A stretch of 64,000 nt of DNA from Alphaproteobacteria bacterium (GTDB lineage Bacteria > Pseudomonadota > Alphaproteobacteria > UBA828), in contig CBDCRW010000006.1 of NCBI GenBank assembly GCA_965221125.1, positions 544,001-608,000 of the forward strand, read 5' to 3'. Under the pieces are notes generated by a model. The model was not told where the DNA came from. It was given only the letters and a program-made list of their open reading frames with translations, and made no database searches. The translations under genes and the position numbers were made by a program. Shown here piece after piece: positions 45,698-63,400 of the stretch (the stretch's first letter is position 1; each line of letters starts with the position of its first letter).

Positions 45698-46348
45698 TCA
45701 GGCGTCGGCGTCCTTCGTGCGATCGCAGCGCATGCCGAGGCTGTAGCGCTCCACCGTGATGCCGTCGAGGAAGTGGAAGGGCCGGTGCCTGGCCCCGCCG
45801 AAGCCCGGCGCCCGCATCAGGATGCCGTCGCCGGGCCCGGCTTCGAGCACGCGCTTATCCGCGCCGCCGCGGTCGGCGCAGAGACCGAAGCGGCCATCGC
45901 CGCTCAGCTGGACGATCACCACCAGACCGACGTAGCGCACGTGGTCGCGGTGCGGCGTGATGCCGCGCGCGCCGGGCGGGTAGCGCTGCAGGACCAGGTC
46001 GTTGAGGGGCAGCGTCTCCAGTGGCGGCGCGTCCATCGCGGTGAGCGCGTCCGCGACCAGCCGTTCGACGGCTTGCGTGAGCCGCCAGAGCGGGTGCGGC
46101 TCCGGGATCGAGAGGCAGATATCGAAATCCTGGTAGACGGCACGCTCTCCCTCCCCGATGACGGGCTTCGCGCTGCGGAAGGAGAGATCGCCGCCGGATT
46201 CGATGAAGGGCCGGCAGTCCGCACGCGCCAGCAGGGGCAGGACCGCAGCGTCCTCGCGCGCCACGCGATCAAGGGCGGCAGCCATCGCGCCGGGGCCCGC
46301 GCGAAGCGCCGGCAGCGCGGCACGATCGCTGCTCACCACAGCCTCCAC
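45698..46348 (-). CDS. AlkB-like 2OG-Fe(II) dioxygenase
   Basis: NDLVLQRY...ITPHRD (HxD)...GDGILM...RPFH...RYSLGMR (RxxxxxR) pattern. Confidence 0.7.
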   Translation of the reverse strand: MEAVVSSDRAALPALRAGPGAMAAALDRVAREDAAVLPLLARADCRPFIESGGDLSFRSAKPVIGEGERAVYQDFDICLSIPEPHPLWRLTQAVERLVADALTAMDAPPLETLPLNDLVLQRYPPGARGITPHRDHVRYVGLVVIVQLSGDGRFGLCADRGGADKRVLEAGPGDGILMRAPGFGGARHRPFHFLDGITVERYSLGMRCDRTKDADA

Positions 46349-46364
46349 CTCGTCAGCGGACCGG

Positions 46365-46691
46365 TCAGTCGCCGATGGGCGGCGAGCATGGCGCGGGGTT
46401 CATCACCATCACGTCTTGCTCCTGGATCGCGTCCAGCGCCCAGACCGACTGGATGAAGGCCTGCCAGTCAGGATCCGCCGTCATCGCCGCCCGGCGCGTC
46501 TCGCGATCCGCCAGGCTCTCGTAGGCCCAGATCAGGACGATCCGGTTCAGCCGGCCGATCTCCGAGACATAGAGGCCGACGAAGCGGCCGAGATGGCGCT
46601 TCTGAATGGGGAGGCCTTCCGTCTGGTACTTCTTCAGCCAGCCGTCCACCGTGCCGGGGCGGAATGTGTAGGTCCGGTGCTCGACGATCAT
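46365..46691 (-). CDS. NIPSNAP family protein
   Basis: MIVEHRTYTFRPG...SEIGRLNRIVLIWAYESLADRETRRAAM..DPDWQAF...PAPCSP; ATGA overlap with the GMC gene. Confidence 0.92.
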   Translation of the reverse strand: MIVEHRTYTFRPGTVDGWLKKYQTEGLPIQKRHLGRFVGLYVSEIGRLNRIVLIWAYESLADRETRRAAMTADPDWQAFIQSVWALDAIQEQDVMVMNPAPCSPPIGD

Positions 46692-48346
46692 TGCGGGACT
46701 CCTTCCGATGGTGCGTGCGCTTCGTCGCTGCCGGCGACGAACTGGGCGGCCTTCTCGCCGATCATGATGGCCGGCGCGTTGGTGTTGCCGCTCGTGATGA
46801 CGGGCATGACGGAGGCATCGGCGACCCTGAGCCCGGCGATGCCGTGGACCGCGAGCCTCGCGTCCACCACCGCCATCGGGTCGGTGCCCATGCGGCAGGT
46901 GCCGACAGGGTGGAAGGTCGTCATCGCGTTGGCGCGGAGCCAGGCCGTGAGCTCGGCGTCGCTCTGCAGCGCATCGCCCGGCGCAAGCTCGCGCCCGCGA
47001 TAGGCGGCGAAGGCCGGCTGCGCGATCACCTCGCGCACCATGCGGATGCCGGCCACGGTCGTGCGGCAGTCGGCCTCGTCCTCCAGGTAGTTGGGCTGGA
47101 TCAGCGCCGGCGCGGCGGGATCGGCGGAGCGGAGCCCGATCCAGCCCCGGCTCTCGGGCACGATGGGGCCGACGCGCAGGGTGAAGCCGTGGGTCTCCTC
47201 CAGCGGGGTCTTCCTGAGCGGATTGGGGATGTGGAGGTTCGCCGTGCTCTCCAGCGCGGGCATGAAGTGTACCTGGATGTCCGGCGCCAGCAGGTCCGGC
47301 CGGGTCTTGAGGAAGGCCCCCGCCTCGTAGGGGAAGGTGGTGGCGATGCCGCGGCCAAACAGCAACCCAGCCGCCACCGAGCGGACCATCCTGTCGACCC
47401 GAAGCTCGCGGTAGAGGGTGATCGGCTCGGTGCAGGTGTAGGCGATGACGCAGTCCACGTGGTCCTGGAGGTTGCGGCCGACGCCGGGGAGCTCGTGGAT
47501 CACCGGGATGCCGTGCCGCTTCAGCTCGTCGCCCGGCCCGATCCCGGAGAGCATGAGGAGCTGCGGCGTGTTGACCGTGCCGCCGCAGAGGATGACCTCG
47601 CGCGCCGCATGGACGGTGCGCGCACCGGCCCCCTCTGCCACCTCGACGCCGGTCGCGCGGCCGCCCTCGACCACGACGCGGCGCACGAGGCAGCCGGTGA
47701 GGATCGTCAGGTTGCGCCGGTGCCGGACCGGGCGCAGGAAGGCGACGGACGTGGAGCAGCGCCTGCCCCGCCTGATGGTGAAGTCGTAGCGCCCGAAACC
47801 TTCCTGCTCCGCCCCGTTGAAGTCGTCGTTGACGGGCCAGCCGGCCTGGGCGCCCGCCTCGAGGAAGGTGTCGAACAGCGGATTGGTCCCGCGCGCACGA
47901 CATACCGTGAGCGCGCCGCCGGTCCCGTGATAGGCATCGTCGCGCTCGACATGCCCTTCAGAGCGACGGAAGGCCGGCAGCACGTCGTCGTAGGACCAGC
48001 CGGCAAGACCCATCTGCGCCCAGCGGTCGTAGTCGTGGCGGTTGCCACGCACATAGACCATGCCGTTGATGGTGGACGAGCCGCCGAGCACCTTGCCGCG
48101 CGGCCAGTAGAGCGAGCGGCCGCCCAGGCCCGGCACCGGCTCGGTGTGGTAGCGCCAGTTGTAGATGCCGGAGTGGAAGAGCCTGCCCATCAGCATGGGG
48201 AGCTGGAAGAGCGGATTGCGGTCCCTGCCGCCGGCCTCGATGAGGAGGACGGAACACCCGGAATCGGCGGACAGCCTGTTGGCGAGCACGCATCCCGCCG
48301 AGCCCGCGCCAACGATGACGTAATCGCAGGAGCGCGCGCGCGGCAT
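46688..48346 (-). CDS. GMC family FAD oxidoreductase (choline dehydrogenase-like)
   Basis: DYVIVGAGSAG, RGKVLGGSSTINGM, GVGRNLQDH, FHPVGTCRMG, SGNTNAP (His/Asn pair); substrate unknown. Confidence 0.93.
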   Translation of the reverse strand: MPRARSCDYVIVGAGSAGCVLANRLSADSGCSVLLIEAGGRDRNPLFQLPMLMGRLFHSGIYNWRYHTEPVPGLGGRSLYWPRGKVLGGSSTINGMVYVRGNRHDYDRWAQMGLAGWSYDDVLPAFRRSEGHVERDDAYHGTGGALTVCRARGTNPLFDTFLEAGAQAGWPVNDDFNGAEQEGFGRYDFTIRRGRRCSTSVAFLRPVRHRRNLTILTGCLVRRVVVEGGRATGVEVAEGAGARTVHAAREVILCGGTVNTPQLLMLSGIGPGDELKRHGIPVIHELPGVGRNLQDHVDCVIAYTCTEPITLYRELRVDRMVRSVAAGLLFGRGIATTFPYEAGAFLKTRPDLLAPDIQVHFMPALESTANLHIPNPLRKTPLEETHGFTLRVGPIVPESRGWIGLRSADPAAPALIQPNYLEDEADCRTTVAGIRMVREVIAQPAFAAYRGRELAPGDALQSDAELTAWLRANAMTTFHPVGTCRMGTDPMAVVDARLAVHGIAGLRVADASVMPVITSGNTNAPAIMIGEKAAQFVAGSDEAHAPSEGVPQ

Positions 48347-48349
48347 CGC

Positions 48350-49204
48350 CTACCAGTCCACCGCCACCGCGCCCATCGCCCCGAGTCGCCGGTTGCAGAG
48401 CATGAACGGATTCTCCAATGCGAGGAACGCGTCGGCCTCGGCCGGGTGCGGACGCAGGATGACGCGCTCTGCGGTGGCCGCATCCGATGCGCCCAGGCCT
48501 GCCACGGCCAGGGTCTCCGCCGCCGCATCGCCGAAGCCCATGAGGACGACCGGCGTTCCCCGCCCGGCCAGATGCTCGATCACCCGGATCATCAGGGGGC
48601 GCCAGAGCGGCAGGTGGCCCCTCCGCTGGTGGGTATCGACCGCGCGCTGGAAGCGCGAGAGCGAGAGCGACGAATTGAGCAGCAGCACGCCGGACGCGAC
48701 CCAGCGGTCGGCCAGCGCTTCGGGTGCCTCCAGGTCGACCGCGCCGGCTTCGATGGCGGCGAGCGTCGCCGGCCAGTCGGCGAAGCGCCGGGCATACCGG
48801 GCTTCGCCGGTGCGCGCGGCGATGATCGCCTGGATGAAGGCGCGGACGCTGGGCGAGAACATCTTGTCGAGCTCCCGCCACTGCGCGACGTTGCCGGCCT
48901 CGAAGGCCCGGCCGGTGGCGAAGGCTGGGCAGGGATAGGGGTCCTGGCCCAGGATCACGCAGCGCACGTCCTCCGGCGCGATTCCGTCGAAGGCGCGGAG
49001 CATGTGGGTGCCCGCCGGCGCGCCGGGAAAGACGGCGCCGCGCCGGGCTGGGAAGATCGGCTCCCAGGGCTCGATCTCGAGCGTGGGGTCCACGTCCCCG
49101 TAGGCCAACGCAACGCCTCGGACGACGTCGCGCCAGGCAGGCTCGACATCCTCCTGCCAGCCTCGCAGCGTGTCCCTCAGCGCCGATCTCAATCGCTTCG
49201 CCAT
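48350..49204 (-). CDS. Family-1 uracil-DNA glycosylase-like protein (divergent)
   Basis: VILGQDPYP, ATGRAF, SPS, GVLLLNSSL, PHP motifs align with UNG; HPSPLS is replaced by HPAEAD. Confidence 0.82.
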   Translation of the reverse strand: MAKRLRSALRDTLRGWQEDVEPAWRDVVRGVALAYGDVDPTLEIEPWEPIFPARRGAVFPGAPAGTHMLRAFDGIAPEDVRCVILGQDPYPCPAFATGRAFEAGNVAQWRELDKMFSPSVRAFIQAIIAARTGEARYARRFADWPATLAAIEAGAVDLEAPEALADRWVASGVLLLNSSLSLSRFQRAVDTHQRRGHLPLWRPLMIRVIEHLAGRGTPVVLMGFGDAAAETLAVAGLGASDAATAERVILRPHPAEADAFLALENPFMLCNRRLGAMGAVAVDW

Positions 49205-49223
49205 GGCGCCAGCTTGTCCCTCG

Positions 49224-49367: not shown

Positions 49368-50267
49368 TCAGGCGGCGAAGCGGACCAGCGCCTCCTGCAG
49401 GTGCTCCGCCATGGCCCGCGCAGCCAGCGTCGGCAGGCGGTCCGACGGCGCGATCAGGCTCAGCCGCAGGCGGGACAGCCGCTCGTCCGCGAGCGGCACC
49501 GCGACCAGGCGCCCGCTGGCCAGCTCCTCCGTGAATCCCATGCGCGTGTAGAACGCGACGCCCGCGCCCTGAAGCAGGAGGTGCTTCAGCGCAGCCAGCG
49601 TGTTGGAGATCACGGCCGGCTCGTGCGCGCGCTTGAAGGCGTCCATCTCGGGGCCGAAGAAGGCCTGCATCGAGCTCGAGCTGTCCTGATAGAGCAGCCG
49701 GCTCGTGCCGCAGTCATCTAGCGTCAGCGCGGATCGCGCCGCCAGCGCGTGGTCCGGGCGCATGATGGCGTGCATCGGGCAGGGAATGTCGTGTACCACC
49801 GTGATGCCGCCTTGCCGCGTCGGCGAGAAGGTGAGCCCGAGATCAGCGTTGCCCTGGCCGATGGAGTGCATGATCTCCATGGGATCGCAGGCCACGACCC
49901 GGATCTGCACCGCCGGATGGTCGGCGATGAAGCGCCCGGCCGCGTCGGGCAGAAAGTGAACGGTCAGGCTGTCCAGGGTGGCGATGGTCACGACGCCGCT
50001 GAGCACGCCGCGCAGCTGGTCGATCTCGCCCCGCAGCCGGGTGAAGTCGTGCAGCGTCGCCTGCGCGTGGCGCAGCACGAGGCGCCCGGCATCGGTGAGC
50101 CGCATGCCATCGGGTCGCCGTTCGAACAGCGGCGTGCCGAAGTAGTCCTCGATCTTAAGGATCTGCCGGTTGACGGCGGAGGGCGAAATGTGGAGGCGCT
50201 CCGACGCGCGGCGGATCGATCCGTCCTCCGCCACCGCCTCGAAGTAGCGCAGCACCGCCGCGTGCAT
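49368..50267 (-). CDS. LysR family transcriptional regulator
   Basis: LRYFEAVAEDGSIRRASERLHISPSAVNRQI...LFER...LTDAG HTH; 299 aa. Confidence 0.96.
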   Translation of the reverse strand: MHAAVLRYFEAVAEDGSIRRASERLHISPSAVNRQILKIEDYFGTPLFERRPDGMRLTDAGRLVLRHAQATLHDFTRLRGEIDQLRGVLSGVVTIATLDSLTVHFLPDAAGRFIADHPAVQIRVVACDPMEIMHSIGQGNADLGLTFSPTRQGGITVVHDIPCPMHAIMRPDHALAARSALTLDDCGTSRLLYQDSSSSMQAFFGPEMDAFKRAHEPAVISNTLAALKHLLLQGAGVAFYTRMGFTEELASGRLVAVPLADERLSRLRLSLIAPSDRLPTLAARAMAEHLQEALVRFAA

Positions 50268-50273
50268 CCGCTC

Positions 50274-50606
50274 TCAGCCTCCGTCCGGCCTCCACGCCGC
50301 GACGGCGGGGTGATCCCGCTCGGTGCGGAAGGCCGGGCTCAGGCCGCCGGGCTGGCCCCAGCCGGTGACCGATGCGCCGAAGAACTCGGCGTTGATGGCG
50401 ACGAAGCCTGCGGACTTCCGGGGCAGGTCGTCTTCGTACCAGATGGCCTCGACCGGACAGACCGAGACGCAGAGCGCGCAGTTCACGCACTCGTCGGGCT
50501 GGATGTAGTACATCCGCCCGCCCTCGTAGATGCAGTCGACGGGGCAGACGTCGGTGCAGACGCCGTCCTTCACGTCGATGCAGGTCTCGGCGATGACGTA
50601 GGTCAT
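50274..50606 (-). CDS. fdxA: 7Fe ([3Fe-4S]/[4Fe-4S]) ferredoxin
   Basis: MTYVIAETCIDVKDGVCTDVCPVDCIYEG...DECVNCALCVSVCPVEAI; ATGA overlap with the hydratase. Confidence 0.92.
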   Translation of the reverse strand: MTYVIAETCIDVKDGVCTDVCPVDCIYEGGRMYYIQPDECVNCALCVSVCPVEAIWYEDDLPRKSAGFVAINAEFFGASVTGWGQPGGLSPAFRTERDHPAVAAWRPDGG

Positions 50607-51370
50607 CGGCCCGACCATGCCGGTGCGCGCTTCTCCCGGAAGGCGGCGACGCCTTCCTCCGCATCCCGGCTCTGCAGCGCATCCACGAGGCTAGGCAGGC
50701 AGGCGTTGCGGGCCTCCGCGACCGTGAGGTGCGCGGTGTCGTGGACGGAGCGCTTGATCGCCTTGAGGCTGAGCGGGGCGCAGGCGACGATGTCCCGGAC
50801 CCAGGCATCGACCGCGTCGTCCAGCGTCCCCTCCTGCACGACCTCGTTGACGAGGCCGAGGCCCAGGGCCTTCGCCGCGTCGATGCGCCGGCCGGTGAGC
50901 AGCATGCCCATGGCGAGCGCGCGCGGAATCCGGCGGGGCAGCGTCACCATGCCGTCGAGCGGCAGGCGGCCGACGCGGGGCTCCGGCAGGCCGAACGACG
51001 CGCCCTCGGCAGCGATCGCGAGATCGCAGCCCAGCACCATCTCGAAGCCGCCGCCGAGCGCGAGCCCGTTCACCCGGGCGACGACGGGCACGGAGAGGCG
51101 GCCGCCGAGCGCGATGCCACCGAAGCCGTGATCGCCGGTGGCGGCCCAGTAGGCCAGCCCGTCGGGGCCGTCCTCCTTCATGTCCGCGCCGGCGCAGAAG
51201 GCGCGGCCCGCGCCGGTGAGCACGACGCAGCGCACGCGCGCGTCCCGGTCGATCTCCGCCCAGATCCTGCCCAGCGCCGCGTCGGTCGCGGAATCGACGG
51301 CGTTCAGCCGCTCCGGCCGGTTCAGCGTAACCCGGGCGATGCCGTCCGTGACGCTGAAGTCCACGCTCAC
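50603..51370 (-). CDS. Enoyl-CoA hydratase (crotonase family)
   Basis: LNRPERLNA, AFCAGADM, GGGFEM, FGLPEPRVG; both catalytic Glu present. Confidence 0.94.
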   Translation of the reverse strand: MSVDFSVTDGIARVTLNRPERLNAVDSATDAALGRIWAEIDRDARVRCVVLTGAGRAFCAGADMKEDGPDGLAYWAATGDHGFGGIALGGRLSVPVVARVNGLALGGGFEMVLGCDLAIAAEGASFGLPEPRVGRLPLDGMVTLPRRIPRALAMGMLLTGRRIDAAKALGLGLVNEVVQEGTLDDAVDAWVRDIVACAPLSLKAIKRSVHDTAHLTVAEARNACLPSLVDALQSRDAEEGVAAFREKRAPAWSGR

Positions 51371-52551
51371 GCCGCGCACCCGTCTTCGGCCGCCACCTCC
51401 GCCAGCACCTCGTTGGTGTGCTCACCGAGCGTGGGCGGCGCGCGGCGCACCGCGAACGGCGCGGCCGACATGTCGATGGGCGAGGCCACGAGACGCACCG
51501 GCCCGCCGGCGGTCGGCGCCAGCTCGACGATCAGGCGGTTGCAGGCGGTCTGCGGGTCCTCGAGGGCGGCCTGGAGCGATTTCACGGGCGCGCACAGGAT
51601 GTCGACCTCGCCGAGGCGCTCCAGCCAGTGGTCCGTCGCGTTGCCGGCGAAGCTCTCGCGGAAGATCGCCTGAAGCTGGGGCCGGTGGGCCTGCTGCTGC
51701 TCCAGCGTGGCGTACCTGGCATCAGCGGAGAGGTCGCCGATGGCGAGCGCCCGGCAGATGTCGCGGAGCGGGTTCTCCTTGAAGGCGCCGACCATGACGA
51801 TGGCGCCGTCGCTGGTCTCGAACACGCCGGAGAGCGGCATGGCGGCCCAGTTGAGCTCGCGGCCCCGCATCATCCACATCGCCGCCTCCTGCATCTGCAT
51901 CGCCAGCATGGAGTTGTAGAGCGAGACCGCCACCTGCTGCCCCTCGCCGGTCCGCTGGCGCTGGAGCAACGCGAGCAGGATCCCCTGTACCAGGTGCATG
52001 CCCGCGGCGTAGTCGGCGAGCGTGGTGGGATAGATGGAGAGCGGCAGCGCCGGGTCCGCGCGGCGGTGCATGGCGCCGCTCATGGCCTGGGCGAGCACGT
52101 CCTGGCCGCCCTTGTGGACGTAGGGGCCGTCGAGGCCGAAGCCGGTGCCGACGGCGTAGACGATGCGCCGGTTGATGCGGCGGAGCTCGTCGTAGCCGAG
52201 GCCCATGCGCTCCATGACGCCGGGGCGGAAGTTGTTCACGACCACGTCCACCGTCTCCACCAGCCGCAGCACGGCCGCCTTGTCGGCGTCGGACTTGAGG
52301 TTGAGGGTGACGCTGCGCTTGTTGCGGTTGAGGCTCGAGAACACCGGGTTGTTGCCGCCGTCCGGGTCCTCGCCGACGCTCCAACGCGAGATGTCGCCCA
52401 GCCCGGCGCGTTCGATCTTGATCACGTCGGCGCCGTAGTCGCCCAGCATCTGCGTGCAGCACGGGCCCATCATCACCTGCGTGAAGTCGAGGACGCGCAC
52501 GCCGTCGAGCGGCAGCGGGCCGCCGCCGGCTGCGCCTGCATTCGCTGCCAT
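51367..52551 (-). CDS. Class III CoA-transferase (CaiB/BaiF family)
   Basis: PLDGVRVLDF, GADVIKIE, NRNKRS, NFRPG, LAD (catalytic Asp), PPTLGEHT motifs; TGATG overlap. Confidence 0.95.
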   Translation of the reverse strand: MAANAGAAGGGPLPLDGVRVLDFTQVMMGPCCTQMLGDYGADVIKIERAGLGDISRWSVGEDPDGGNNPVFSSLNRNKRSVTLNLKSDADKAAVLRLVETVDVVVNNFRPGVMERMGLGYDELRRINRRIVYAVGTGFGLDGPYVHKGGQDVLAQAMSGAMHRRADPALPLSIYPTTLADYAAGMHLVQGILLALLQRQRTGEGQQVAVSLYNSMLAMQMQEAAMWMMRGRELNWAAMPLSGVFETSDGAIVMVGAFKENPLRDICRALAIGDLSADARYATLEQQQAHRPQLQAIFRESFAGNATDHWLERLGEVDILCAPVKSLQAALEDPQTACNRLIVELAPTAGGPVRLVASPIDMSAAPFAVRRAPPTLGEHTNEVLAEVAAEDGCAA

Positions 52552-54783: not shown

Positions 54784-55595
54784 CGCGGCACATCCAGGAG
54801 GCCGCGCAGGTGCGCCGTGACCTGCACGAACTCGAGCGTGTCGCGCATGCCGAGGACGCGGGGCGAATCGAAGGAGATGTCCAGGTATTCGCGGACGCGG
54901 CCCGGCTGGGCCGAGAGCACCAGGCACTTCTGGCCGAGGAACGCGGCTTCCGGCACCGAGTGCGTCACGAACATGATCGTGGTGCCGGTCGTCTTCCAGA
55001 TGCGCAACAGCTCCTCGTTGAGGTTGTCGCGCTTGATCTCGTCGAGCGCGCCGAAGGGCTCGTCCATCAGCAGCACGCGGGGGCGGCAGACGAGCGCCCG
55101 GGCGATGGAGACGCGCTGGCGCATCCCGCCGGAAAGCTCGTGGGGGAGCGCGTCCTCGCGCCCTTCGAGGCCCACCAGCGCCAGCAGCTCCTCCGGCTCC
55201 GCGTGCTGCTCCACGCCGCCGCCGCGACGGCCGACTTCCAGCGGCAGCCGCACGTTGTCGATCGCGCTCCGCCAGGGCAGCAGCGTCGCATCCTGAAAGA
55301 CGAAGGCGAAATCGCGCGCGCGGCGTGCCTCCTCCGGCGTGCGGCCGAAGACGCGGATGTCGCCGCCCGAGAGCGGCACCAGATCGGCGATGGCGCGCAG
55401 CAGCGTGGACTTGCCGCAGCCGGACGGGCCCAGCATGGTGACGAAGCCGCCCTCGGGCACGCTGAAGCCCACCCTCTCCAGGGCGGTGACGCTGCCGGTC
55501 TCCGTCTCGAAACGGACGACCAGGTCGTTCACCGAGATCGCCGTGGCGGCGGCGCTTACCGTCTCCGCCCCCGCCACGGCAGCGGCTTGCGTCAT
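54780..55595 (-). CDS. NitT/TauT-type ABC ATP-binding protein
   Basis: GPSGCGKST, VFQDATLLPWR, LSGGMRQR, DEPFGALD motifs. Confidence 0.95.
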   Translation of the reverse strand: MTQAAAVAGAETVSAAATAISVNDLVVRFETETGSVTALERVGFSVPEGGFVTMLGPSGCGKSTLLRAIADLVPLSGGDIRVFGRTPEEARRARDFAFVFQDATLLPWRSAIDNVRLPLEVGRRGGGVEQHAEPEELLALVGLEGREDALPHELSGGMRQRVSIARALVCRPRVLLMDEPFGALDEIKRDNLNEELLRIWKTTGTTIMFVTHSVPEAAFLGQKCLVLSAQPGRVREYLDISFDSPRVLGMRDTLEFVQVTAHLRGLLDVPR

Positions 55596-56638
55596 CCGAC
55601 CTCTTTCCTCACGGCCTCCGTGGCGGAAAGGATATCCAGAGTCATCACGTCGTCTACGGTCGGCGTCGGACCCTGGAACTGCTCAAGCTCGGCGTAGGAG
55701 TCGATCTGGGCCTGCCAGTTGGCCGGGTTCATGGCCGCCCAGCCCTCGGCCGCCGTGACGTCGTTGAACGCGAAGCCCAGCACCAGGCCGGACGCCTCCA
55801 GCTCGCTCGCGCGGTCCAGGTTCTGGTACTCGGCGACGAGGTGGTCGACGCCCGCCTCGGGGTTCTTGCGCGCCTCGCCCCAGCCGCGGGCGGAGCCGGT
55901 GAGGAAGCGGGCCAGCACGTCCGCGTGCTCCGCCAGCATCTCGTCGGTGGCGTAGTAGACGTTGGCGTAGAGCTGGATGCCGGCGTCCCACAGCATCATG
56001 TCGACGCGGTCCTCGCCGAGCACCTTCAGCGCGTTGGTGTTGGTCATCCAGCCGGTCACCGCTGCGGCCTGGCCGGTCATCACCTGGTTCATGTCGCTGC
56101 CCATCTTGACGATCTCGACCTGGTCCTCGGCGATGCCGTTCTTGGCCAGCAGCGCGCGGAGCAGGATCACCGCCGTCGGCTGCGTCGCGATGGTCTTGCC
56201 GATCATGTCCTGCGGCGTGTTGATGGGATTGCTGCCGAGCGAGAAGTAGGTGAAGGGGTGCTTCTGGTAGCCGGCCGCAAACGCCTTGACCGGGATGCCG
56301 GCGGAGCGCGCCAGCATCAGCGACGGGCTGGAGGAGAGATGGCCGACCCCGGCCCGGCCGGCGGCGACCGAGGCGACGCCGTCCACGCCCGGCCCACCCG
56401 GCGTGACCTCAAGCTCGATGCCGAGCTCCTCGTAGATTCCCGTGCGCTTGGCCACGATCTCGCCCATGATGCCGTTGCTGGCGAGCCAGCCGAGCTGCAT
56501 GTTGACCTTCGCCGCATCGGCGCCGAGGGCCTCGACGCTGACGAGGGACGACACGGCTGCGACGCCGCCGAGCGCTGCACCGCCCTTGAGAATCTGGCGG
56601 CGGCTCAATTGGGCATGTGGGTGCCGGTGCTGAGTCAT
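55592..56638 (-). CDS. ABC substrate-binding protein, NMT1/THI5-like (Tat-exported)
   Basis: Tat signal SRRQILKGG; QLGWL..., GIELEVTPGGPG, PQDMIGKTI motifs typical of NMT1/THI5-type binding proteins. Confidence 0.85.
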   Translation of the reverse strand: MTQHRHPHAQLSRRQILKGGAALGGVAAVSSLVSVEALGADAAKVNMQLGWLASNGIMGEIVAKRTGIYEELGIELEVTPGGPGVDGVASVAAGRAGVGHLSSSPSLMLARSAGIPVKAFAAGYQKHPFTYFSLGSNPINTPQDMIGKTIATQPTAVILLRALLAKNGIAEDQVEIVKMGSDMNQVMTGQAAAVTGWMTNTNALKVLGEDRVDMMLWDAGIQLYANVYYATDEMLAEHADVLARFLTGSARGWGEARKNPEAGVDHLVAEYQNLDRASELEASGLVLGFAFNDVTAAEGWAAMNPANWQAQIDSYAELEQFQGPTPTVDDVMTLDILSATEAVRKEVG

Positions 56639-56836
56639 GGTCTTTCCTCCCAGGTGGTTGTCAGGCTGGCGGCGGACGGTGCGGCCCGCGCGCCGCAGGC
56701 GTGCCGGGGCTGCGGGAGGCGTGGCGGTGCGATGCGAACCATCATCCCACTCGGCTCATCCCGAAATCCTCCCGTCGTCGGGTGCAACGGTAGCCAGCCT
56801 GCCCGTTCGAGGGAATTGCTAAATTCTGCCCCATGT

Positions 56837-56853
56837 GTTGCTCGATTTGCAAC
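56837..56853. promoter_or_regulatory. LysR-type binding site candidate
   Basis: GTTGC-N7-GCAAC dyad containing T-N11-A, in the AT-rich divergent intergenic region. Confidence 0.55.
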
Positions 56854-56948
56854 GCAACGCGCGCAAAGAATCGCGCCATAATTGTGGCGAACGGAACATG
56901 GCGCGGCCCGCCTGCGGCACCGGCCGGGCGGCACCAGGGGGAGCGATC

Positions 56949-57956
56949 ATGACTGAGGCAAGAGCGGATCGCGCGCATGTGGCGGCGTTCGACGAAGTGC
57001 CGCAGATCGACATCGGGCCGCTGTTTCGGGGCGACGAGCGGGCGCGGCGGGGCGTGGGCGATGCGGTGCGCGATGCCTGCCGCGACGTGGGCTTCTTCTA
57101 CATCCGCAACCACGGCATTGCGCAGGCGACCATCGACGATCTGTTCGCGCAGATGGCGCGCTTCTTCGCCCTGCCGGAGGACGCGAAGCGCGAAATCCAC
57201 GCGAGCAAGTCGCGGTGCTTCCGCGGCTACTCCGGGCTCTTCGAGGAGCGGCACGACGCTGCGACCGACTACTACGAGCCGCACGAGGTGATCGACTTCG
57301 GCCGCGAGAACCAGCCCGACGACCCGCCGGAATGCGCGGCGAGCCTGCTCTACGGCCCCAACCTCTGGCCATCGGAGCCGCCGGCGCTGCGCCGGGCAGT
57401 GGAGGCCTACTACGCGGCCATGGTCGAGGTCTCGAACGCGCTGCTCCGCGCCTTCGCGCTCGCCCTGGCGTTGCCGGAGGCGTACTTCCTCGACAAGTTC
57501 GACCGTGCCGCAGGCGCGCTCAGGCTCCTGCACTACCCGCCGCAGGCTCCGGACGAGAGACGGCTCGGCGTCGGCGCGCATACCGACTACGAGATGTTCA
57601 CGATCCTGGCGCAGGAGGCCACGCCCGGCCTCCAGGTCCTGAACGGCGCGGGCGCCTGGATCGACGTTCCGCCGGTCGCGGGCACCTTCGTGGTCAATAT
57701 CGGCGACCTCATGGCGCGCTGGACCAACGACCGTTTCACCTCGAACATCCACCGCGCCGCCAACCGCACCGCCCGCCACCGCTACTCCATCCCCTTCTTC
57801 ATGGGGGCCAACGTCGACACCGAGATCCGCTGCCTCGCGAGCTGCACCGGGCCGGACGAGCCGCCAAGGTATCCGCCGGTGCTGGCGGGCGCGCATATCG
57901 AGGCCCGGCTGCTCGAGCTGCAGCACGCCCTGGTGGAGGCCAAGAGCGCGGACTGA
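56949..57956 (+). CDS. IPNS-family 2OG-Fe(II) oxygenase
   Basis: VPQIDI, ACRDVGFFYIRNHG, LRLLHYPP, AHTD (HxD), VNIGDLM, HR, RYSIPFF motifs. Confidence 0.93.
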   Translation: MTEARADRAHVAAFDEVPQIDIGPLFRGDERARRGVGDAVRDACRDVGFFYIRNHGIAQATIDDLFAQMARFFALPEDAKREIHASKSRCFRGYSGLFEERHDAATDYYEPHEVIDFGRENQPDDPPECAASLLYGPNLWPSEPPALRRAVEAYYAAMVEVSNALLRAFALALALPEAYFLDKFDRAAGALRLLHYPPQAPDERRLGVGAHTDYEMFTILAQEATPGLQVLNGAGAWIDVPPVAGTFVVNIGDLMARWTNDRFTSNIHRAANRTARHRYSIPFFMGANVDTEIRCLASCTGPDEPPRYPPVLAGAHIEARLLELQHALVEAKSAD

Positions 57957-58228: not shown

Positions 58229-59398
58229 ATGAGAGACAGCGACAAGCGGAAGAAATCCGATCGTACCGGGTTCAAGATCAACCGGCGGACCCTGTTGAAG
58301 GGAGGCGCGGCGGCCGCAGGTGTCGCGGCGGCCGGCTCGCTCACGATTTTCTCGCGCACGGCGCGCGCCGCCGACACGCTGCGGGTGCTGTGCTGGCCGG
58401 GCTACGAAGAGAAGAACGTGATCCAGGAGTTCGAGGACACGCACGGCGTCAAGGTCGAGTTCAAGATCTACATCGGCGGCGAGCAGATGCTCCAGTTCTT
58501 CAACCAGACGCCGCGCGGGACCTACGACAACGTGCTGGCGGACGCCGAGTACATCCGCAAGCTCGCGGCCATCGACGCGATCGAGCCCTACAACCCGGGC
58601 GAGGTCACCGAGCTCGCCAACTACCACCCGAAGTTCAACGACATGCACCAGGTGCAGGCCGGCGACGGCATGGTCTGGGGCACGCCGACGCGCTTCAGCT
58701 TCTACGCCATCTCCTACAACTCGGACCACATGAGCTTCGAGGAGAGCGGCGACTGGAACTCGCTGTTCCTGCCCAAGTTCCAGGGCAAGATCGGCATCTT
58801 CGACTGGTACCTGCCGAACATGGGCAACGCGAGCCTCGCGGTGCATCCCAACAAGGAGAACCCCTACGACCTGACCGACGACCAGCTCGGCGCGGTCCGC
58901 GACTGGCTGCTGAAGCTCAGGCCCCAGGTCAACATGTTCGGCTCCAGCGCCCAGCCCATCGTGCAGGCGATGATCAACGGCGACGTCGTCGCAGGGATGA
59001 TCGGCGACCTCGACATCGACCTGAAGCTCGCCGGCTACACCAACATGGAATCGACGATCCCGGTGCAGGGCGGCATCCGCTGGCAGGAAGTGGCCACCAT
59101 GTGCAAGCAGAGCGAGAACAAGGAGCTCGCGCTGGAGTGGATCAAGTACATGAGCCAGGCCCACGTGCAGGCCAAGCTGGCCTACACCAAGGCGTTCAAG
59201 GCCCGTGGCCCCAATCTCAAGATCGCCGAGCACTGGGACGATGAGCAGAACCAGCTCATGGGCTACTATCCCGATCCCAACAACTCCAGCCAGATGTGGG
59301 TGGAGACGCTGATCGACCGCAGCGTCGGCCGCGATCTTCCCGTGCAGCAGGACGAGAAGGCTTGGATCGATATCTTCAACGAGTTCAAGACGGGCTAG
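58229..59398 (+). CDS. ABC substrate-binding protein, PotD/PotF-like (Tat-exported)
   Basis: Tat signal NRRTLLKGG; LRVLCWPGY, FEDTHGVKV, NKELALEWIKYM motifs; followed by potABC-like genes. Confidence 0.85.
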   Translation: MRDSDKRKKSDRTGFKINRRTLLKGGAAAAGVAAAGSLTIFSRTARAADTLRVLCWPGYEEKNVIQEFEDTHGVKVEFKIYIGGEQMLQFFNQTPRGTYDNVLADAEYIRKLAAIDAIEPYNPGEVTELANYHPKFNDMHQVQAGDGMVWGTPTRFSFYAISYNSDHMSFEESGDWNSLFLPKFQGKIGIFDWYLPNMGNASLAVHPNKENPYDLTDDQLGAVRDWLLKLRPQVNMFGSSAQPIVQAMINGDVVAGMIGDLDIDLKLAGYTNMESTIPVQGGIRWQEVATMCKQSENKELALEWIKYMSQAHVQAKLAYTKAFKARGPNLKIAEHWDDEQNQLMGYYPDPNNSSQMWVETLIDRSVGRDLPVQQDEKAWIDIFNEFKTG

Positions 59399-59463: not shown

Positions 59464-59493
59464 CGCACCCGCTCCGCGCGAGCCTGACGAGCG

Positions 59494-60627
59494 ATGGCGC
59501 ATGAAGCAGGGAGCGCGGTAGCGGGCGGCGCGGTCGCCGACCTCGAGGTGCGCGGCATCGCCAAGCGCTTCGGCTCGGTGGTCGCCATCGAGCGTGTCGA
59601 CATCGACGTCCAGCGCGGCGAGTTCGTCGCCATCATGGGGCCGAGCGGCTGCGGCAAGACAACGCTGCTCCGCATCATCGCAGGGCTGGAGAGGGCGGAC
59701 GCAGGCACGCTGCTGCTGCGCGGCGACGACATCGGCGACGTGCCGGTGCACAAGCGCAGCACCCGGCTTATCTGGCAGGACTACTCGCTCTTCCCCTTCC
59801 TCAACGTCCGCAAGAACATCGAGTTCGGGCTGACGCTCAAGCGCCACGACAAGAAGGAGGTGCGGCGGAAGGTCGAAGCCGTGGCGGAGCAGGTTCACCT
59901 GACCCCTCTGCTCGCGCGCCGCATCGGCCAGTTGAGCGGCGGCGAGAAGCAGCGGGTCGCCATCGCCCGGGCGCTCGTCACCGAGCCGGAGATCCTGCTT
60001 CTCGACGAGCCGCTCAGCTCGCTCGACGCGCACCTGCGGATCAAGGTGCAGAGCGAGCTCACGGTGCTGCAGCGCGAGCTCGGAATCTCCTTCATCTACG
60101 TCACCCACAACCAGAGCGAAGCCTTCGCCATGGCGGACCGGGTGGTGGTCATGAACAAGGGCGTCGTCGAGCAGGTCGGTCGGCCGGCCGAGATCTACAA
60201 TCGGCCGGAAACCCACTTCGTCGCCGAGTTCGTGGGCGCGAACAACATTTTCGAGGGCCGGCTCTCGGAGGTGGCGGGCGGCGCGGTGGTCGTCGACTGC
60301 AGCCACGGCGCGGTCCGCATCGCCGGGCACGGGAGCGATCTAGAGCGGGGTGCTGCTGTCGAACTGGTGGTGCAGGCGGACAAGCTGCGCCGCCGCCAGG
60401 ACGGCGACGATGGCCGGAACACGATCCGGGCGGTCCTGAAGGGCCGCGAGTTCACCGGCTCGCAAGTGATCTACTACCTGGAGACCGCGCAGGGCGTCGA
60501 GGTCAAGATGGTCCTGCAGGAGCCCTTCACCGAGGGCGAAGGGACCGAGATCAACTCCGAGATGGAGCTTTGCTGGGCGCCCGAGGACACCGTCATCCTC
60601 GGGCACCGGGATGCGGACCAGCCGTGA
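59494..60627 (+). CDS. PotA-like ABC ATP-binding protein
   Basis: GPSGCGKTT, LSGGEKQR, LLDEPLSSLD motifs; C-terminal TOBE domain. Confidence 0.93.
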   Translation: MAHEAGSAVAGGAVADLEVRGIAKRFGSVVAIERVDIDVQRGEFVAIMGPSGCGKTTLLRIIAGLERADAGTLLLRGDDIGDVPVHKRSTRLIWQDYSLFPFLNVRKNIEFGLTLKRHDKKEVRRKVEAVAEQVHLTPLLARRIGQLSGGEKQRVAIARALVTEPEILLLDEPLSSLDAHLRIKVQSELTVLQRELGISFIYVTHNQSEAFAMADRVVVMNKGVVEQVGRPAEIYNRPETHFVAEFVGANNIFEGRLSEVAGGAVVVDCSHGAVRIAGHGSDLERGAAVELVVQADKLRRRQDGDDGRNTIRAVLKGREFTGSQVIYYLETAQGVEVKMVLQEPFTEGEGTEINSEMELCWAPEDTVILGHRDADQP

Positions 60628-60666
60628 GCCGGGCTCGCGCAGCGCCCCGCCGGTGACGAGGGCCCC

Positions 60667-61575
60667 GTGACCGACGGCAGCGTGATTCCCCCGTCCAACA
60701 GGAGCCCGCTCAAGCTCGCCTTCCTCGCGCCACCGGCCGGCTACTACGCGATCTTCTTCATCGCGCCCCTGGCCTTCCTCGTCGTTCTCGGCTTCTGGAT
60801 CGTGCGCGACTACCAGATCGTCGCCGAGTTCTCGGTCGGCAACTACGTCGACATCTTCTCCCAGTTCTTCAGCCGCTCGCGCTTCGGCTGGGCGCTGATC
60901 CAGTCGGTCTACATCGCGGTGACCACCAGCGTGTTCGCCGTGATCTTCTGCTACTTCCTGGCGATGGGGATCGTCTTCTGCGTGCCTGAGCGCTATCAGC
61001 GGCTCTTCCTCGTGCTCGCGATCCTGCCGTTCTGGAGCAGCTACATCCTGCGGCTTTTCGCCTGGCAGCTGATCCTGGCGCAGAAGGGGGTGCTCAACTA
61101 CGTCCTCGGCGGGCTCGGCCTCGACGATCCCCTGATCATCACGAACACGCAGATCGGCACGCGCATCGGCCTGATCCACTACCTCTCGCCGATCCTGATC
61201 ATCATCCTCTACATCACGCTCATCAACGTGAACCGGAACCTGATCGAGGCGGCGCGCGAGCTGGGCGCCACGCGCCTGCAGGCGTTCTGGCGCGTCATCG
61301 TGCCGCTCAGCCGGCTCGGACTGACGTTCGCCTTCGGCTTCGGCGTGATCGTGAGCTTCGGCGACGTGCTTTCCGGCCTGCTCGTCGGCGGCGGGATCGG
61401 GCAGTCCTTCCTCGGCTCGTATCCGCTCTACTCCAACATGATCATGGCCGACTACAACAGCTACACCAACCTGCCCCGCACGGCCGCGCTAGCGACGGTC
61501 ATGGTCGTCATCATGGTGGTGATGCTGGTGGTCGCCTACCGCATGGCCGACCACGCCAGAGAGCGGCTGGCCTGA
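60667..61575 (+). CDS. PotB-like ABC permease
   Basis: ILPFWSSYILR and EAARELGA (EAA loop); multiple TM helices. Confidence 0.9.
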   Translation: MTDGSVIPPSNRSPLKLAFLAPPAGYYAIFFIAPLAFLVVLGFWIVRDYQIVAEFSVGNYVDIFSQFFSRSRFGWALIQSVYIAVTTSVFAVIFCYFLAMGIVFCVPERYQRLFLVLAILPFWSSYILRLFAWQLILAQKGVLNYVLGGLGLDDPLIITNTQIGTRIGLIHYLSPILIIILYITLINVNRNLIEAARELGATRLQAFWRVIVPLSRLGLTFAFGFGVIVSFGDVLSGLLVGGGIGQSFLGSYPLYSNMIMADYNSYTNLPRTAALATVMVVIMVVMLVVAYRMADHARERLA

Positions 61576-61577
61576 CG

Positions 61578-62396
61578 ATGGGCCGGTTCAACCTCTACGT
61601 CCGCGACAACGGCTACCGCATCGCAGGGCGGGTCTACCTCTTTCTCGGCTTCATCTTCCTGCTGCTGCCGATCGCCTTCCTGATCCTCTTCTCGTTCCAG
61701 AAGAACGTCTATTCTTCGCTCCCGCTCCAGGGCTGGTCCATGCAGTGGTACGACAAGCTGGTCGACGACGGCGTCCTCTTCGATGCGCTGCTGAACAGCC
61801 TCTACGTCTCGCCCATCGCGGCGACGGCGGCCTCGATCATCGGCTTCCTCGCGGCCTATGCGATCAACCGCTTCGTCTTTCCCGGCCGCCTGCTGATGGC
61901 GACGATCCTGATCCTGCCGATCCTGATACCGCCGCTGATCCTGGGCGTCTCGCTGCTGGGCCTGCTGTCGCGCCTCGGGCTGCACGGCCAGCTCTACAGC
62001 ATCATCATCGCGCACACGCTGCTGCTGACCGCGCCCGCCATGGCGATCATCCAGCTTCGCCTCGCCCAGATGCCGCCCGCGCTGGAGGAGGCCGCCTGGG
62101 ACCTCGGCGCGAACGAGCTTCAGACCGTCTGGCGCGTGGTGCTGCCCTGGGCGCTGCCCGGCATCGCCGGCGGCTGGCTGCTGGCGTTCACCTTCTCGTT
62201 CGACGAGTTCATCATCGCCTGGTTCGTCTCGGGCTTCGACCAGACGCTGCCGGTCGCCGTCTACAACGTGATGATCGCCTCGCACGACCCCTCGCTGAAC
62301 GCGATCGGGACGATCGTGTTCGGCCTGCTGCTGCTGGCCCTGCTCGGGGCCGAGCTGCTGATCATTCCGCTCTTCATGAGGCGCCGCACCGCCTGA
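61578..62396 (+). CDS. PotC-like ABC permease
   Basis: SMQWY, LEEAAWDLGA, FTFSFDEF, TLPV motifs. Confidence 0.92.
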   Translation: MGRFNLYVRDNGYRIAGRVYLFLGFIFLLLPIAFLILFSFQKNVYSSLPLQGWSMQWYDKLVDDGVLFDALLNSLYVSPIAATAASIIGFLAAYAINRFVFPGRLLMATILILPILIPPLILGVSLLGLLSRLGLHGQLYSIIIAHTLLLTAPAMAIIQLRLAQMPPALEEAAWDLGANELQTVWRVVLPWALPGIAGGWLLAFTFSFDEFIIAWFVSGFDQTLPVAVYNVMIASHDPSLNAIGTIVFGLLLLALLGAELLIIPLFMRRRTA

Positions 62397-62426
62397 GCGC
62401 GCCGCGGGCCAGGGAAGGAACGTGCC

Positions 62427-62942
62427 ATGGACAAGACGGACTACATGCAGCGCGCCATCGACCTCGCGCGCGAGAAGATGAACGAGGGCACCGGCTACTG
62501 GCCGTACGGCTGCGTCATCGTCAAGGACGGCGAGATCGTGGGCGAGGGCTGCAACGACATGGGTTTCTCGCTGGATCCCACGGGCCACGGCGAGATCGTG
62601 GCTCTCCGCGACGCCTGCAAGCGGCTCGGCACCATGGACCTCACCGGCTGCGAGCTCTACACCAGTTGCGAGCCCTGTTCGCTCTGCTCCAGCGCGATCT
62701 GGCTGACGAACATCGCCAAGGTCTATTACGGCGCCTCGCTGGAGGATTGCCGCGGACACGGCTCGGACTTCGACCCGCTGCGCCGCGACGTCGCCAAGCC
62801 GATCCACGAGCGGAGCATCCCGGCCGAGCGCGTCCTCGGCGAGCAGGGGAGCGCCCTGCTGGCGGAGTGGGCTGAAATGATCAGGACCGATCCGGCGATG
62901 CAGGAGCAGCGCAGCCGGGCCGCCCCCATCGGCGAGCGCTAG
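62427..62942 (+). CDS. Zinc-dependent nucleobase/nucleoside deaminase (GuaD/TadA-like fold)
   Basis: DPTGHGEIVALRDAC...LYTSCEPCSLC (HxE...PCxxC). Confidence 0.9.
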   Translation: MDKTDYMQRAIDLAREKMNEGTGYWPYGCVIVKDGEIVGEGCNDMGFSLDPTGHGEIVALRDACKRLGTMDLTGCELYTSCEPCSLCSSAIWLTNIAKVYYGASLEDCRGHGSDFDPLRRDVAKPIHERSIPAERVLGEQGSALLAEWAEMIRTDPAMQEQRSRAAPIGER

Positions 62943-62986
62943 GCGGGGTCGGGCGGGCGTCGCGGACGAGCGGCCGGAGGGCGATC

Positions 62987-63400
62987 ATGAGCCTCGATGC
63001 CTTGCGCAATCTGACCGACATCGGCCTCTTCGTCTCGGACCTGGAGCGCGCTATTGCGTTCTACGGCGAGACGATGGGCTTCGCGCTCAAGCGCCGCGAC
63101 ATCGGCTTCGCCGAGTTCTACACCAACGGCGTGGGCCTCGCGCTCTGGGAGGTCTCGGACGTGACGCAGGCGCTCGAACTGGAGAAGACGCCGCGGCAGG
63201 GTCTATCCGTCATGGTGGCGGTTCGCGTGGAGACGGCGGACGCCGTGGACGCGCTCCACGACGCGCTGGCGGCCAAGGGCGTGACCATCGTCCAGGCGCC
63301 GACCACCCACGCCTGGAACGCACGCACCACCTACTTCAGCGACCCGGACGGCAACCTCTGGGAGATCTACGCCTGGGTCGACGCCCCGCGAACGGTCTGA
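62987..63400 (+). CDS. VOC/glyoxalase family protein
   Basis: IGLFVSDLERAIAFY...W..RTTYFSDPDGNLWEI motifs. Confidence 0.92.
   Translation: MSLDALRNLTDIGLFVSDLERAIAFYGETMGFALKRRDIGFAEFYTNGVGLALWEVSDVTQALELEKTPRQGLSVMVAVRVETADAVDALHDALAAKGVTIVQAPTTHAWNARTTYFSDPDGNLWEIYAWVDAPRTV

Follow-up and report, generated by a model that had tools for sequence, protein, structure and literature searches.

Does the interval between uvrD and a PfkB kinase gene in an alphaproteobacterial genome encode one pathway, or is it a composite of parts with separate histories? The question is raised by the window analysed here, a stretch of 64,000 nucleotides (nt) from contig CBDCRW010000006.1 with a G+C content of 69% (0.694), whose nearest database records are metagenome-assembled genomes of Alphaproteobacteria/Rhodospirillales and for which runs with related DNA are labelled sponge metagenome. 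Open reading frame listing, together with Pfam and NCBIfam scans, places 19 genes in the interval, 12 on the minus and seven on the plus strand. This bears out the inventory in an earlier reading made from the letters without database searches (the sequence-only reading), which had taken the 19 genes for a single two-armed accessory island. Outward from the divergent region, the minus arm encodes an NMT1-type binding protein, an ATPase, a permease, a flavoprotein, a coenzyme A (CoA)-transferase, a crotonase, a ferredoxin, a LysR regulator, a uracil-DNA glycosylase (UDG)-like protein, a GMC oxidoreductase, a NIPSNAP protein and a protein of 216 amino acids (aa); the plus arm encodes a DIOX_N/2OG-FeII oxygenase (2OG, 2-oxoglutarate), a PotD-like binding protein, PotA-, PotB- and PotC-like proteins, a deaminase of the cytidine deaminase (CDA) fold and a VOC protein. 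Four modules are distinguished: M1, the AlkB-like 216-aa protein; M2, the UDG-like/GMC/NIPSNAP trio; M3, the NMT1/flavoprotein/CoA genes; and M4, the 2OG/PotABCD-like/CDA-fold/VOC genes. Comparison across genomes shows the modules to be inherited separately, M2 and M3 to have been joined repeatedly and accessory genes to be common to several modules. The explanation that we favour, with moderate confidence, is that the locus is a lineage-specific mosaic of M1-M4 serving one theme, the scavenging of pyrimidine-type nucleosides and aminated N-heterocycles. Below, L-numbers denote loci and G-numbers genomes, G000 being the window's own.

In G048, in G247 and in a second copy within the window's genome, a divergent TetR gene stands before the M2 trio, which is followed by a Bmp protein, a double ATPase and BPD_transp_2 permeases; the Bmp/PnrA binding protein (PF02608) was recognised through Pfam in G048, whereas in later loci tblastn was used. 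A metagenome scan covered 71 loci, of which the 66 with a UDG-like gene at 44-88% identity were counted (L180 and L182-L185, with no UDG-like match or one of at most 33% identity, were left out), and each denominator below comprises only loci with enough flank to show the neighbour in question. TetR neighbours the UDG-like gene in 45/49 loci, the GMC gene follows it in 41/42 and NIPSNAP follows GMC in 35/39; the Bmp binding protein is a neighbour in 34 of 35 loci, the double ATPase in 30 of 30 and the permease in 26 of 27. In 41 of 42 loci the UDG-like gene heads an importer operon, at 3-9 nt from GMC. The sole long locus without the Bmp binding protein is L115, which belongs to the window's clade and lacks TetR as well. 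Further downstream, these operons carry a RihA-like pyrimidine nucleosidase (16 loci), a TRZ/ATZ-type amidohydrolase termed AH-B (17 loci) or, in L171, a pyrimidine nucleoside phosphorylase. The C-terminal domain of the TetR protein is of the YcdC/RutR type (8.9e-43), and among NCBIfam models the protein scores best against RutR. Because of this RutR-like regulator, the Bmp importer, the RihA-like hydrolase, the pyrimidine nucleoside phosphorylase and a cytosine deaminase described below, the context of the modules is that of nucleoside and pyrimidine metabolism.

Since the trio elsewhere comes with TetR and the Bmp importer, the window's M2 is a cut-down copy, reduced to three enzymes, of a widespread operon. 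The UDG-like protein occurs in three of 401 Alphaproteobacteria genomes (the window's own included), and its family has 914 database relatives. The second, complete copy lies on contig 5 of the window's genome (74000-93999, L105), where the UDG-like, GMC and NIPSNAP proteins are 74, 83 and 93% identical to those of the window and are accompanied by TetR, the double ATPase and permeases. Its other neighbours are a transposase of the IS110 family, a fragment, 159 aa long, of a gene of the AtzD/TrzD family (barbiturase/cyanuric acid hydrolase) and a TrwC-type relaxase; because the transposase and the relaxase adjoin it, a mobile-element setting is suggested for this copy.

M3, a widespread module of eight genes, is built around its signature enzyme, a PF12831 flavoprotein whose relatives number in the thousands, at least 552 of them in a one-genome-per-species collection; the best 120, from Alpha- and Gammaproteobacteria, all have an identity of 72% or more, and the protein was found in 12 of the 401 Alphaproteobacteria genomes sampled, again counting the window's own. 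An actinobacterial origin, prompted by an FdxA_Actino match, was ruled out by this distribution. Counts for M3 refer to the best 80 of the 552 or more flavoprotein loci, examined with 10-kb flanks in a tblastn matrix. The six core genes of M3 occur together in 73 of the 80, and the commonest extra neighbour is an amidohydrolase of the TRZ/ATZ/8-oxoguanine-deaminase type (43 loci); a dihydrodipicolinate synthase-family protein stands nearby in 14. The window's genome holds no orthologue of this amidohydrolase, the best match there being 29% identical.

M2 stands beside M3 in at least four different gene orders. In the window's clade, represented also by L115 and by L001, which is judged to be the same species because it is 97% identical, M3 is followed by LysR and then by the trio, with a gap of 163 nt between LysR and the UDG-like gene in the window. 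In L158, L159 and L174, one population at 98% DNA identity, the order is M3, amidohydrolase, ferredoxin and TetR (both on the minus strand) and the full M2 operon. Allomesorhizobium camelthorni (L190) and Rhizobium sp. P40RR-XXII (L191) have the M2 operon and M3 in one run, namely TetR, UDG-like, GMC, NIPSNAP, Bmp, ATPase, permease, (VOC,) RihA-like, AH-B, NMT1, ATPase, permease, flavoprotein, CoA-transferase, crotonase and LysR. This supercluster comprises 18 genes in A. camelthorni CCNWXJ 40-4 and 17 in Rhizobium sp. P40RR-XXII, all in one orientation in the latter; Mesorhizobium alhagi CCNWXJ12-2 has the same M2 and M3 pieces on two contigs and probably carries the whole supercluster. On the short contig L137 (768-3407) a minus-strand LysR gene is followed by a UDG-like gene and an NMT1-type binding protein, a third arrangement that links the UDG-like gene with an NMT1 importer instead of a Bmp importer.

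M4 is rare. PotD-like orthologues of at least 52% identity occur in five of the 401 Alphaproteobacteria genomes (G000, G048, G369, G111 and G353), a count that leaves out five genomes whose best match is only 30-35% identical. The CDA-fold gene adjoins the importer in three of the four other genomes: G048 has 2OG, PotDABC and the CDA-fold gene in the same order as the window, G111 has VOC, PotDABC, the CDA-fold gene and 2OG together with three amidohydrolases, and G353 has the CDA-fold gene, PotDABC and VOC with one amidohydrolase. In G369 the PotD-like gene is the only M4 gene on a contig of 7.4 kb, and the flavoprotein is on another contig. By the NCBI cut-off (779 bits scored, 438 needed), the Amidohydro_3 protein encoded next to M4 in G111 qualifies as a cytosine deaminase; its homologue beside M4 in G353 shares 63% identity with it. 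The CDA-fold enzyme itself has as its best solved relative the guanine deaminase of Bacillus subtilis (1tiy, 8.4e-32), with HGE and PCSLC motifs in the alignment. Accessory genes recur across modules: the AH-B at the end of M2 in L143 is 79% identical to the M. alhagi copy beside M3 (L066) and 53-55% identical to the copy beside the M4 deaminase in G111, and VOC homologues adjoin the M4 importer in G111 and G353 and also end the M2 operon in eight metagenome loci and in L191.

From these contexts we infer one scavenging theme across the modules. In the working that we propose, a nucleoside or base would be imported and then lose its amino groups to the CDA-fold enzyme; in other genomes, amidohydrolase deaminases would carry out this step. 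The UDG-like protein, which keeps the residues of the uracil pocket, may bind or cleave a uracil N1-glycoside, whose primary alcohol the GMC enzyme would oxidise. The carboxylate product could then be converted to a CoA thioester, to be reduced or desaturated at a C=C bond by the ferredoxin-linked flavoprotein and hydrated by the crotonase. A stronger version, which we regard as tentative and rather doubtful, holds that the trio together with the flavoprotein, ferredoxin, CoA-transferase and hydratase forms an undescribed catabolic route for pyrimidine nucleosides in which the UDG-fold enzyme acts on a free small molecule. Its substrate would be a uracil N1-glycoside with a GMC-oxidised 5'-hydroxymethyl group, or uracil itself, and the ring- or sugar-derived acid would be handled as a CoA thioester by a flavoprotein resembling ferredoxin-dependent ene-reductases. 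In either version, an enzyme of a DNA-repair fold seems to have been recruited to metabolism.

That the cluster replaces a missing pyrimidine route was considered and rejected: RutA exceeds its cut-off in none of the five carrier genomes, but dihydropyrimidinase/hydantoinase does so in all five, and the cluster is therefore not needed for such a route. Since it does not replace a missing route, modified or unusual substrates are favoured over plain uracil. Each of G000, G048, G247, G401 and G403 has between one and four loci over the D-hydantoinase/dihydropyrimidinase cut-off, which fits a rich cyclic-amide metabolism.

Several observations weigh against the mosaic with a common theme, the presence of dihydropyrimidinase/hydantoinase in all five carrier genomes tested among them. 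The solved relatives of both binding proteins are distant (ThiY at 8e-12, PotD/PotF at about 1e-15), and, among the enzymes, curated NCBIfam cut-offs are reached for the GMC protein (by a subfamily model), for the ferredoxin and for the cytosine deaminase nearby, and for no other. The nearest relative of the UDG-like protein is an active DNA glycosylase, so that a DNA substrate is possible, and the fold matches of the flavoprotein, by Foldseek and by VIA, are tied over many flavoenzyme classes. M2 beside M3 is a minority state. Within the 10-kb flanks uvrD and the AlkB-like, NIPSNAP and UDG-like genes lie near the flavoprotein only in L001, a count of one in 80 that is too low because the flanks hid the trio in L060 and L073; once operon tails are counted the figure is four of the 80 flavoprotein loci, and among UDG-like loci with at least 7.5 kb upstream it is three of 19, from two lineages. 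The modules also occur apart, G048 having M2 and M4 without M3 and Rhizobium freirei having M3 without the UDG-like gene, and in G247 and in the genome of L044 M2 and M3 are 260-650 kb apart, which speaks against a tight link.

Of the rival explanations, the one that survives best, though we consider it unlikely, is that the modules are functionally unrelated neighbours: M3 would run a carnitine-like CoA cycle that breaks down an onium compound or a non-heterocyclic organic acid, M4 would import a polyamine-like amine and their adjacency would be incidental. The enzymes of M3 lend themselves to this, as a CoA-transferase and a crotonase accompanied by a FixC-like flavoprotein and a ferredoxin bring the cai/fix system to mind, and M3 stands alone in most loci. 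The flavoprotein model (mean predicted local distance difference test score, pLDDT, 94) has no close solved relative, with Foldseek template-modelling (TM) scores of at most 0.56. FixC of EtfABCX and a geranylgeranyl-reductase-like protein tie as its top VIA matches (Z 21.9 and 21.4), and other near folds by VIA include those of fumarate and urocanate reductases. For the most part these enzymes reduce C=C bonds, and some of them have ferredoxin-type partners. A PDB sequence search matched only the N-terminal Rossmann part, and in the ESM Atlas the protein falls in 'FAD-dependent oxidoreductase' (FAD, flavin adenine dinucleotide) clusters only. The nearest solved relatives of the CoA-transferase are SUGCT (9br6, 8e-58) and formyl-CoA transferases. 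The crotonase meets no NCBIfam equivalog cut-off (DpgD 254/400 bits, CaiD 174/500); its translation contains GGGFE and FGLPEP, so that both catalytic glutamates appear to be present, their positions being presumed from the motifs of the rat enzyme. These fold neighbours and glutamates, and likewise the invariant residues of the UDG-like protein given below, also count in favour of the working proposed above.

The transporters, too, score best against taurine/sulfonate and polyamine/aminoethylphosphonate models. All of these scores, however, fall far under the curated cut-offs: CaiB (NF002914) 115 of 413 bits, CaiD (NF002936) as given above, PotD 63.5 of 582, PotF 52.9 of 636 and TauA 29 of 490. 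Against the PDB, the NMT1 protein matches 4nmy (1e-13) and ThiY (3ix1, a formylaminopyrimidine binder). The amidohydrolase that accompanies M3 in more than half of its loci indicates an amidine or amino-heterocycle, M2 has come to lie beside M3 in at least four arrangements, and M4 is tied to CDA-fold, CodA-like and TRZ/ATZ-type deaminases; all three points argue against incidental adjacency.

The sequence-only reading of all 19 genes as one co-selected island, encoding one pathway for a nucleobase or nucleoside with a methyl, hydroxymethyl or other substituent, fares worse, and we hold it to be improbable. The arms adjoin in the window, in L115 and, decayed, in L024; the AH-B-group amidohydrolase and VOC proteins occur with relatives of both arms, an indirect link, and G048 has both M2 and M4 although each is rare. 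Against this, plus-arm genes are absent from 79 of the 80 flavoprotein loci, the exception being fragments in L024. Matches in the PotA column at about 27-47% identity, most of which hit the ATPase gene of M3 itself, were left out of the M4 count, as were the weak PotB/PotC-like matches that L004, L029, L031, L049 and L077 also show. Conversely, M4 occurs without the flavoprotein in three of its four other genomes: a search at E<=1e-20 yielded no flavoprotein in G048, G111 or G353, whose completeness is 99% or higher in each case. The arms therefore travel together only in the window's clade, with a flavoprotein identity of at least 86%. Even there the plus arm varies. L024, at 86% flavoprotein identity, retains partial 2OG and PotD matches and a PotC-like stretch at 4563-6908, with PotA and PotB missing, and its plus arm appears to be decaying. 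In L115 (about 96% protein identity) only 573 nt separate the PotD-like and NMT1 genes (2050-2622), and because this close relative has no 2OG gene, the plus-arm 2OG oxygenase is dispensable.

The complete genome G048, of the same family, has its homologous genes scattered, with PfkB at 1.05 Mb, uvrD at 1.27, the AlkB-like gene at 1.31, the UDG-like operon at 1.61 and the PotD-like module at 3.23 Mb, so that M2 and M4 lie 1.6 Mb apart; this supports the accessory character claimed for the region. The neighbourhood counts bring the one-island explanation close to refutation. The sequence-only reading had held that arms never co-occurring in other genomes would refute it, and this is nearly what was found, co-occurrence being confined to a single clade. 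What stands of it is the idea that unnamed enzymes take up and degrade N-heterocycles or nucleosides, which the RutR-like, Bmp, RihA-like and cytosine deaminase contexts support; the single two-armed pathway does not.

Equally improbable in our estimate is that the UDG-like and AlkB-like proteins are ordinary DNA-repair enzymes, placed beside uvrD or co-regulated with pyrimidine catabolism against uracil in DNA. In UNG enzymes the GQDPY motif provides the water-activating Asp and the Tyr gate, LLLN the uracil-recognising Asn, and motif B, HPSPLS, the DNA-intercalating Leu. All four catalytic residues of family-1 UNG, Asp, Tyr, Asn and His, are preserved in the UDG-like protein: D88, Y90, N177 and H253 are invariant, and GQDPYP, LLLN and the motif-B His-Pro are found in all 23 aligned members. 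Its best PDB sequence match is the active UNG of Nitratifractor salsuginis (5x3g, 4.7e-11), and the listed Foldseek matches of its AlphaFold2 model (pLDDT 74.7) are all UNGs, the Nitratifractor entries foremost (TM 0.42-0.65, TMt 0.51-0.65, E down to 1.2e-6), which confirms the fold. Scores against family models are weak (Pfam UDG E 0.037; TIGR00628 ung 64.6 against 185.75 bits; PF03167 14.5 against 24.3), and the Leu loop reads HPA(E/A)AD instead of HPSPLS, with no PLS. The place of the gene at the head of an importer operon likewise speaks against a repair role, and the genome already holds three other PF03167 genes over the Pfam cut-off (contigs 5 and 7, L111-L113) besides its two UDG-like copies.

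The 216-aa protein has no Pfam match itself at E<=1, but eight of 23 aligned family members match PF13532 (best E 3.3e-6), as do those of its 299 homologues that are 52-54% identical. AlkB-type enzymes carry an HxD...H iron triad and an Arg pair for 2OG, and H133, D135, H192, R201 and R207 are invariant in the 23 sequences. Of the two 2OG-Fe(II) enzymes named by the sequence-only reading, the plus-arm one matches Pfam directly and the second resembles AlkB through its aligned family. Although uvrD comes next in the window, it and the AlkB-like gene border the trio in only one of 66 metagenome loci, M1 joins the trio only in the window's clade (L001, L115), and in G048, G222 and G351 the AlkB-like gene has neither the trio nor uvrD within 1.5 kb. 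A conserved DNA-repair cluster of UDG-like, AlkB-like and uvrD genes is ruled out by this restriction to one clade.

Table 1. Features of the window between uvrD and the PfkB kinase gene. Counts out of 80 refer to the flavoprotein loci described in the text.
Module	Feature	Coordinates	Strand	Evidence and remarks
	uvrD	43336..45630	-	
M1	Divergent AlkB-like 2OG-Fe(II) dioxygenase, 216 aa	45698..46348	-	16 nt downstream of NIPSNAP, 67 nt upstream of uvrD
M2	NIPSNAP-domain protein, 108 aa	46365..46691	-	Pfam PF07978 E 1.7e-30; ATG at 46691 overlaps GMC stop (ATGA)
M2	GMC flavoprotein oxidoreductase, choline-dehydrogenase-like	46688..48346	-	Pfam GMC_oxred_N/C; NCBIfam NF002550 677 bits (cut-off 605)
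M2	UDG-like protein, 284 aa, family-1 UNG-like fold	48350..49204	-	3 nt upstream of GMC
M3	LysR regulator	49368..50267	-	Pfam HTH_1 + LysR_substrate; 67/80 loci, 35 of them >=50% identity
M3	7Fe (FdxA-type) ferredoxin	50274..50618	-	NCBIfam NF045480 134 bits (cut-off 125); 66/80 loci
M3	Crotonase-family enoyl-CoA hydratase	50603..51379	-	Pfam ECH_1 1.2e-54; 78/80 loci
M3	Class III (CaiB/BaiF) CoA-transferase	51367..52551	-	Pfam CoA_transf_3 1.3e-110; 79/80 loci
M3	PF12831 FAD-dependent oxidoreductase, signature enzyme	52551..53912	-	Pfam 2.5e-86
M3	ABC permease (NitT/TauT type), start approximate	53944..54783	-	Pfam BPD_transp_1; orthologue median 279 aa; 76/80 loci
M3	ABC ATPase	54780..55595	-	Pfam ABC_tran; 76/80 loci
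M3	NMT1/THI5-type periplasmic binding protein, twin-arginine translocation (TAT) signal	55592..56638	-	Pfam NMT1 5.3e-45 + TAT_signal; 74/80 loci
	Divergent intergenic region M3/M4	56639..56948	.	G+C 0.674; 56740-56900 G+C 0.565
M4	DIOX_N/2OG-Fe(II) oxygenase, PaIPNS-like clade	56949..57956	+	Pfam
M4	PotD-like binding protein, TAT signal	58229..59398	+	Pfam SBP_bac_8
M4	PotA-like ATPase	59494..60627	+	Pfam, NCBIfam
M4	PotB-like permease	60667..61575	+	Pfam, NCBIfam
M4	PotC-like permease	61578..62396	+	Pfam, NCBIfam
M4	CDA-fold Zn deaminase, guanine-deaminase-like	62427..62942	+	Pfam dCMP_cyt_deam_1
M4	VOC (glyoxalase/bleomycin-resistance fold) protein	62987..63400	+	Pfam Glyoxalase 7.7e-21
	PfkB kinase, 357 aa	start 63420/63495, likely Met ~63495	+	Closes plus arm; following genes on opposite strand

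The divergent region had been called AT-rich, which holds only in a relative sense: its G+C content is below the window average, most clearly in the inner 160 nt, and is still close to it over the whole region (Table 1). Read by eye, it contains a palindrome, TTGC-N7-GCAA at 56838-56852, which is of the T-N11-A type and a candidate LysR box. The proposal that uvrD and PfkB each have their own promoter found no backing, as a promoter and terminator scan of the region gave no excess over chance (one consensus site against 0.9 expected); the sole sigma-70-like match, at 63420-63448, falls past the end of the VOC gene and ahead of the likely PfkB start.

Two of the analogies on which the sequence-only reading drew also gave way. 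The GMC enzyme had been likened to pyridoxine 4-oxidase and 5-hydroxymethylfurfural oxidase, and its nearest relative is instead a choline dehydrogenase (BetA, 9lq0, 1.5e-138), the chloramphenicol primary-alcohol oxidase 8b7s being the other near solved structure. The plus-arm oxygenase had been compared with thymine-7-hydroxylase, yet it lies nearer the PaIPNS clade (9ovh 7.7e-61, 6jyv 4e-43) than the thymine dioxygenase 5c3p (6.2e-35), which ranks behind 9ovh, 6jyv, SpoC, TropC and TraH. According to PMC12329707, 9ovh is a reconstructed ancestor near the uncharacterised PaIPNS, with no known substrate and essentially inactive in ethylene-forming reactions.

Catabolic clusters for nucleosides and N-heterocycles are known as a kind; what is new here is the two uncharacterised enzyme sets. 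A literature search found no description of the M2 or M3 gene set (subscription journals lay outside its coverage). If the reading from gene context is true, the repair fold of UDG has a second role in small-molecule metabolism, possibly the first for the superfamily, and the widespread M3 and UDG-like enzyme sets belong to nucleoside or N-heterocycle scavenging; if the undescribed route exists, it would stand beside the reductive, oxidative and Rut routes as a further means of pyrimidine or nucleoside breakdown. Such scavenging matters to how sponge symbionts, rhizobia and marine Rhodobacterales recycle nitrogen and carbon, and since the supercluster is present in cultured rhizobia, the idea is directly testable. 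The locus also carries a caution for annotation, as its best matches would read as taurine transport and carnitine metabolism in sponge symbionts, which curated cut-offs do not support.

The likeness of the modules to known systems is in each case partial. The cai/fix carnitine system of Escherichia coli comprises CaiB, CaiD and FixCX, and M3 likewise joins a class III CoA-transferase and a crotonase to a FixC-like flavoprotein with a ferredoxin; it differs in its low CaiB and CaiD scores, in having no CaiA, CaiC, CaiT or FixAB in the locus, in its NMT1-type importer and in its frequent partner, the deaminase-type amidohydrolase. The importer of M4 resembles PotABCD in make-up, with a PotD-like protein far below the PotD and PotF cut-offs. 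The plus-arm oxygenase shares its DIOX_N/2OG-FeII architecture with the fungal thymine-7-hydroxylase (5c3p), yet is closer to PaIPNS-like proteins. PHYHD1/FJS 2OG dioxygenases, which are another family, act on free modified nucleosides according to PMC12709175; by analogy they may serve as a precedent for repair-type oxygenases in nucleoside turnover, and are no evidence on this locus.

Closer parallels come from nucleobase and nucleoside metabolism. The CDA-fold enzyme aligns with GuaD of B. subtilis (1tiy/1wkq) over residues 4-138 and has the HxE and PCxxC zinc motifs in common with it, whereas its last 30 residues are unaligned and its gene has as neighbours those of a PotD-like importer and, in relatives, of cytosine deaminase and TRZ/ATZ-type hydrolases. 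With the RutR regulon and Rut pathway of E. coli, the full M2 operon found elsewhere has a pyrimidine theme in common through its YcdC/RutR-domain TetR, which reaches 152 of the 368 bits set for the RutR equivalog; none of the M2 enzymes are Rut enzymes, RutA is absent from the carriers and the window's copy has no TetR. Systems of Bmp/PnrA importers with RihA hydrolases match the full M2 operon in its PF02608 protein, double ATPase, BPD_transp_2 permeases and, often, RihA-like hydrolase, whereas the window's M2 has lost the importer and its three conserved enzymes are without counterpart in known nucleoside operons. To our knowledge no UDG is known from a nucleoside-importer operon, and the literature search, within the same coverage, returned no paper on one. 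Compared, finally, with the family-1 UNG of Nitratifractor salsuginis (5x3g/5x3h), the UDG-like protein has the same fold and retains Asp and Tyr of GQDPY, Asn of LLLN and His-Pro of motif B; it is about 55 residues longer, with an insertion, has a changed Leu loop, falls under the curated UDG thresholds and is encoded first in a nucleoside-importer operon, together with GMC and NIPSNAP.

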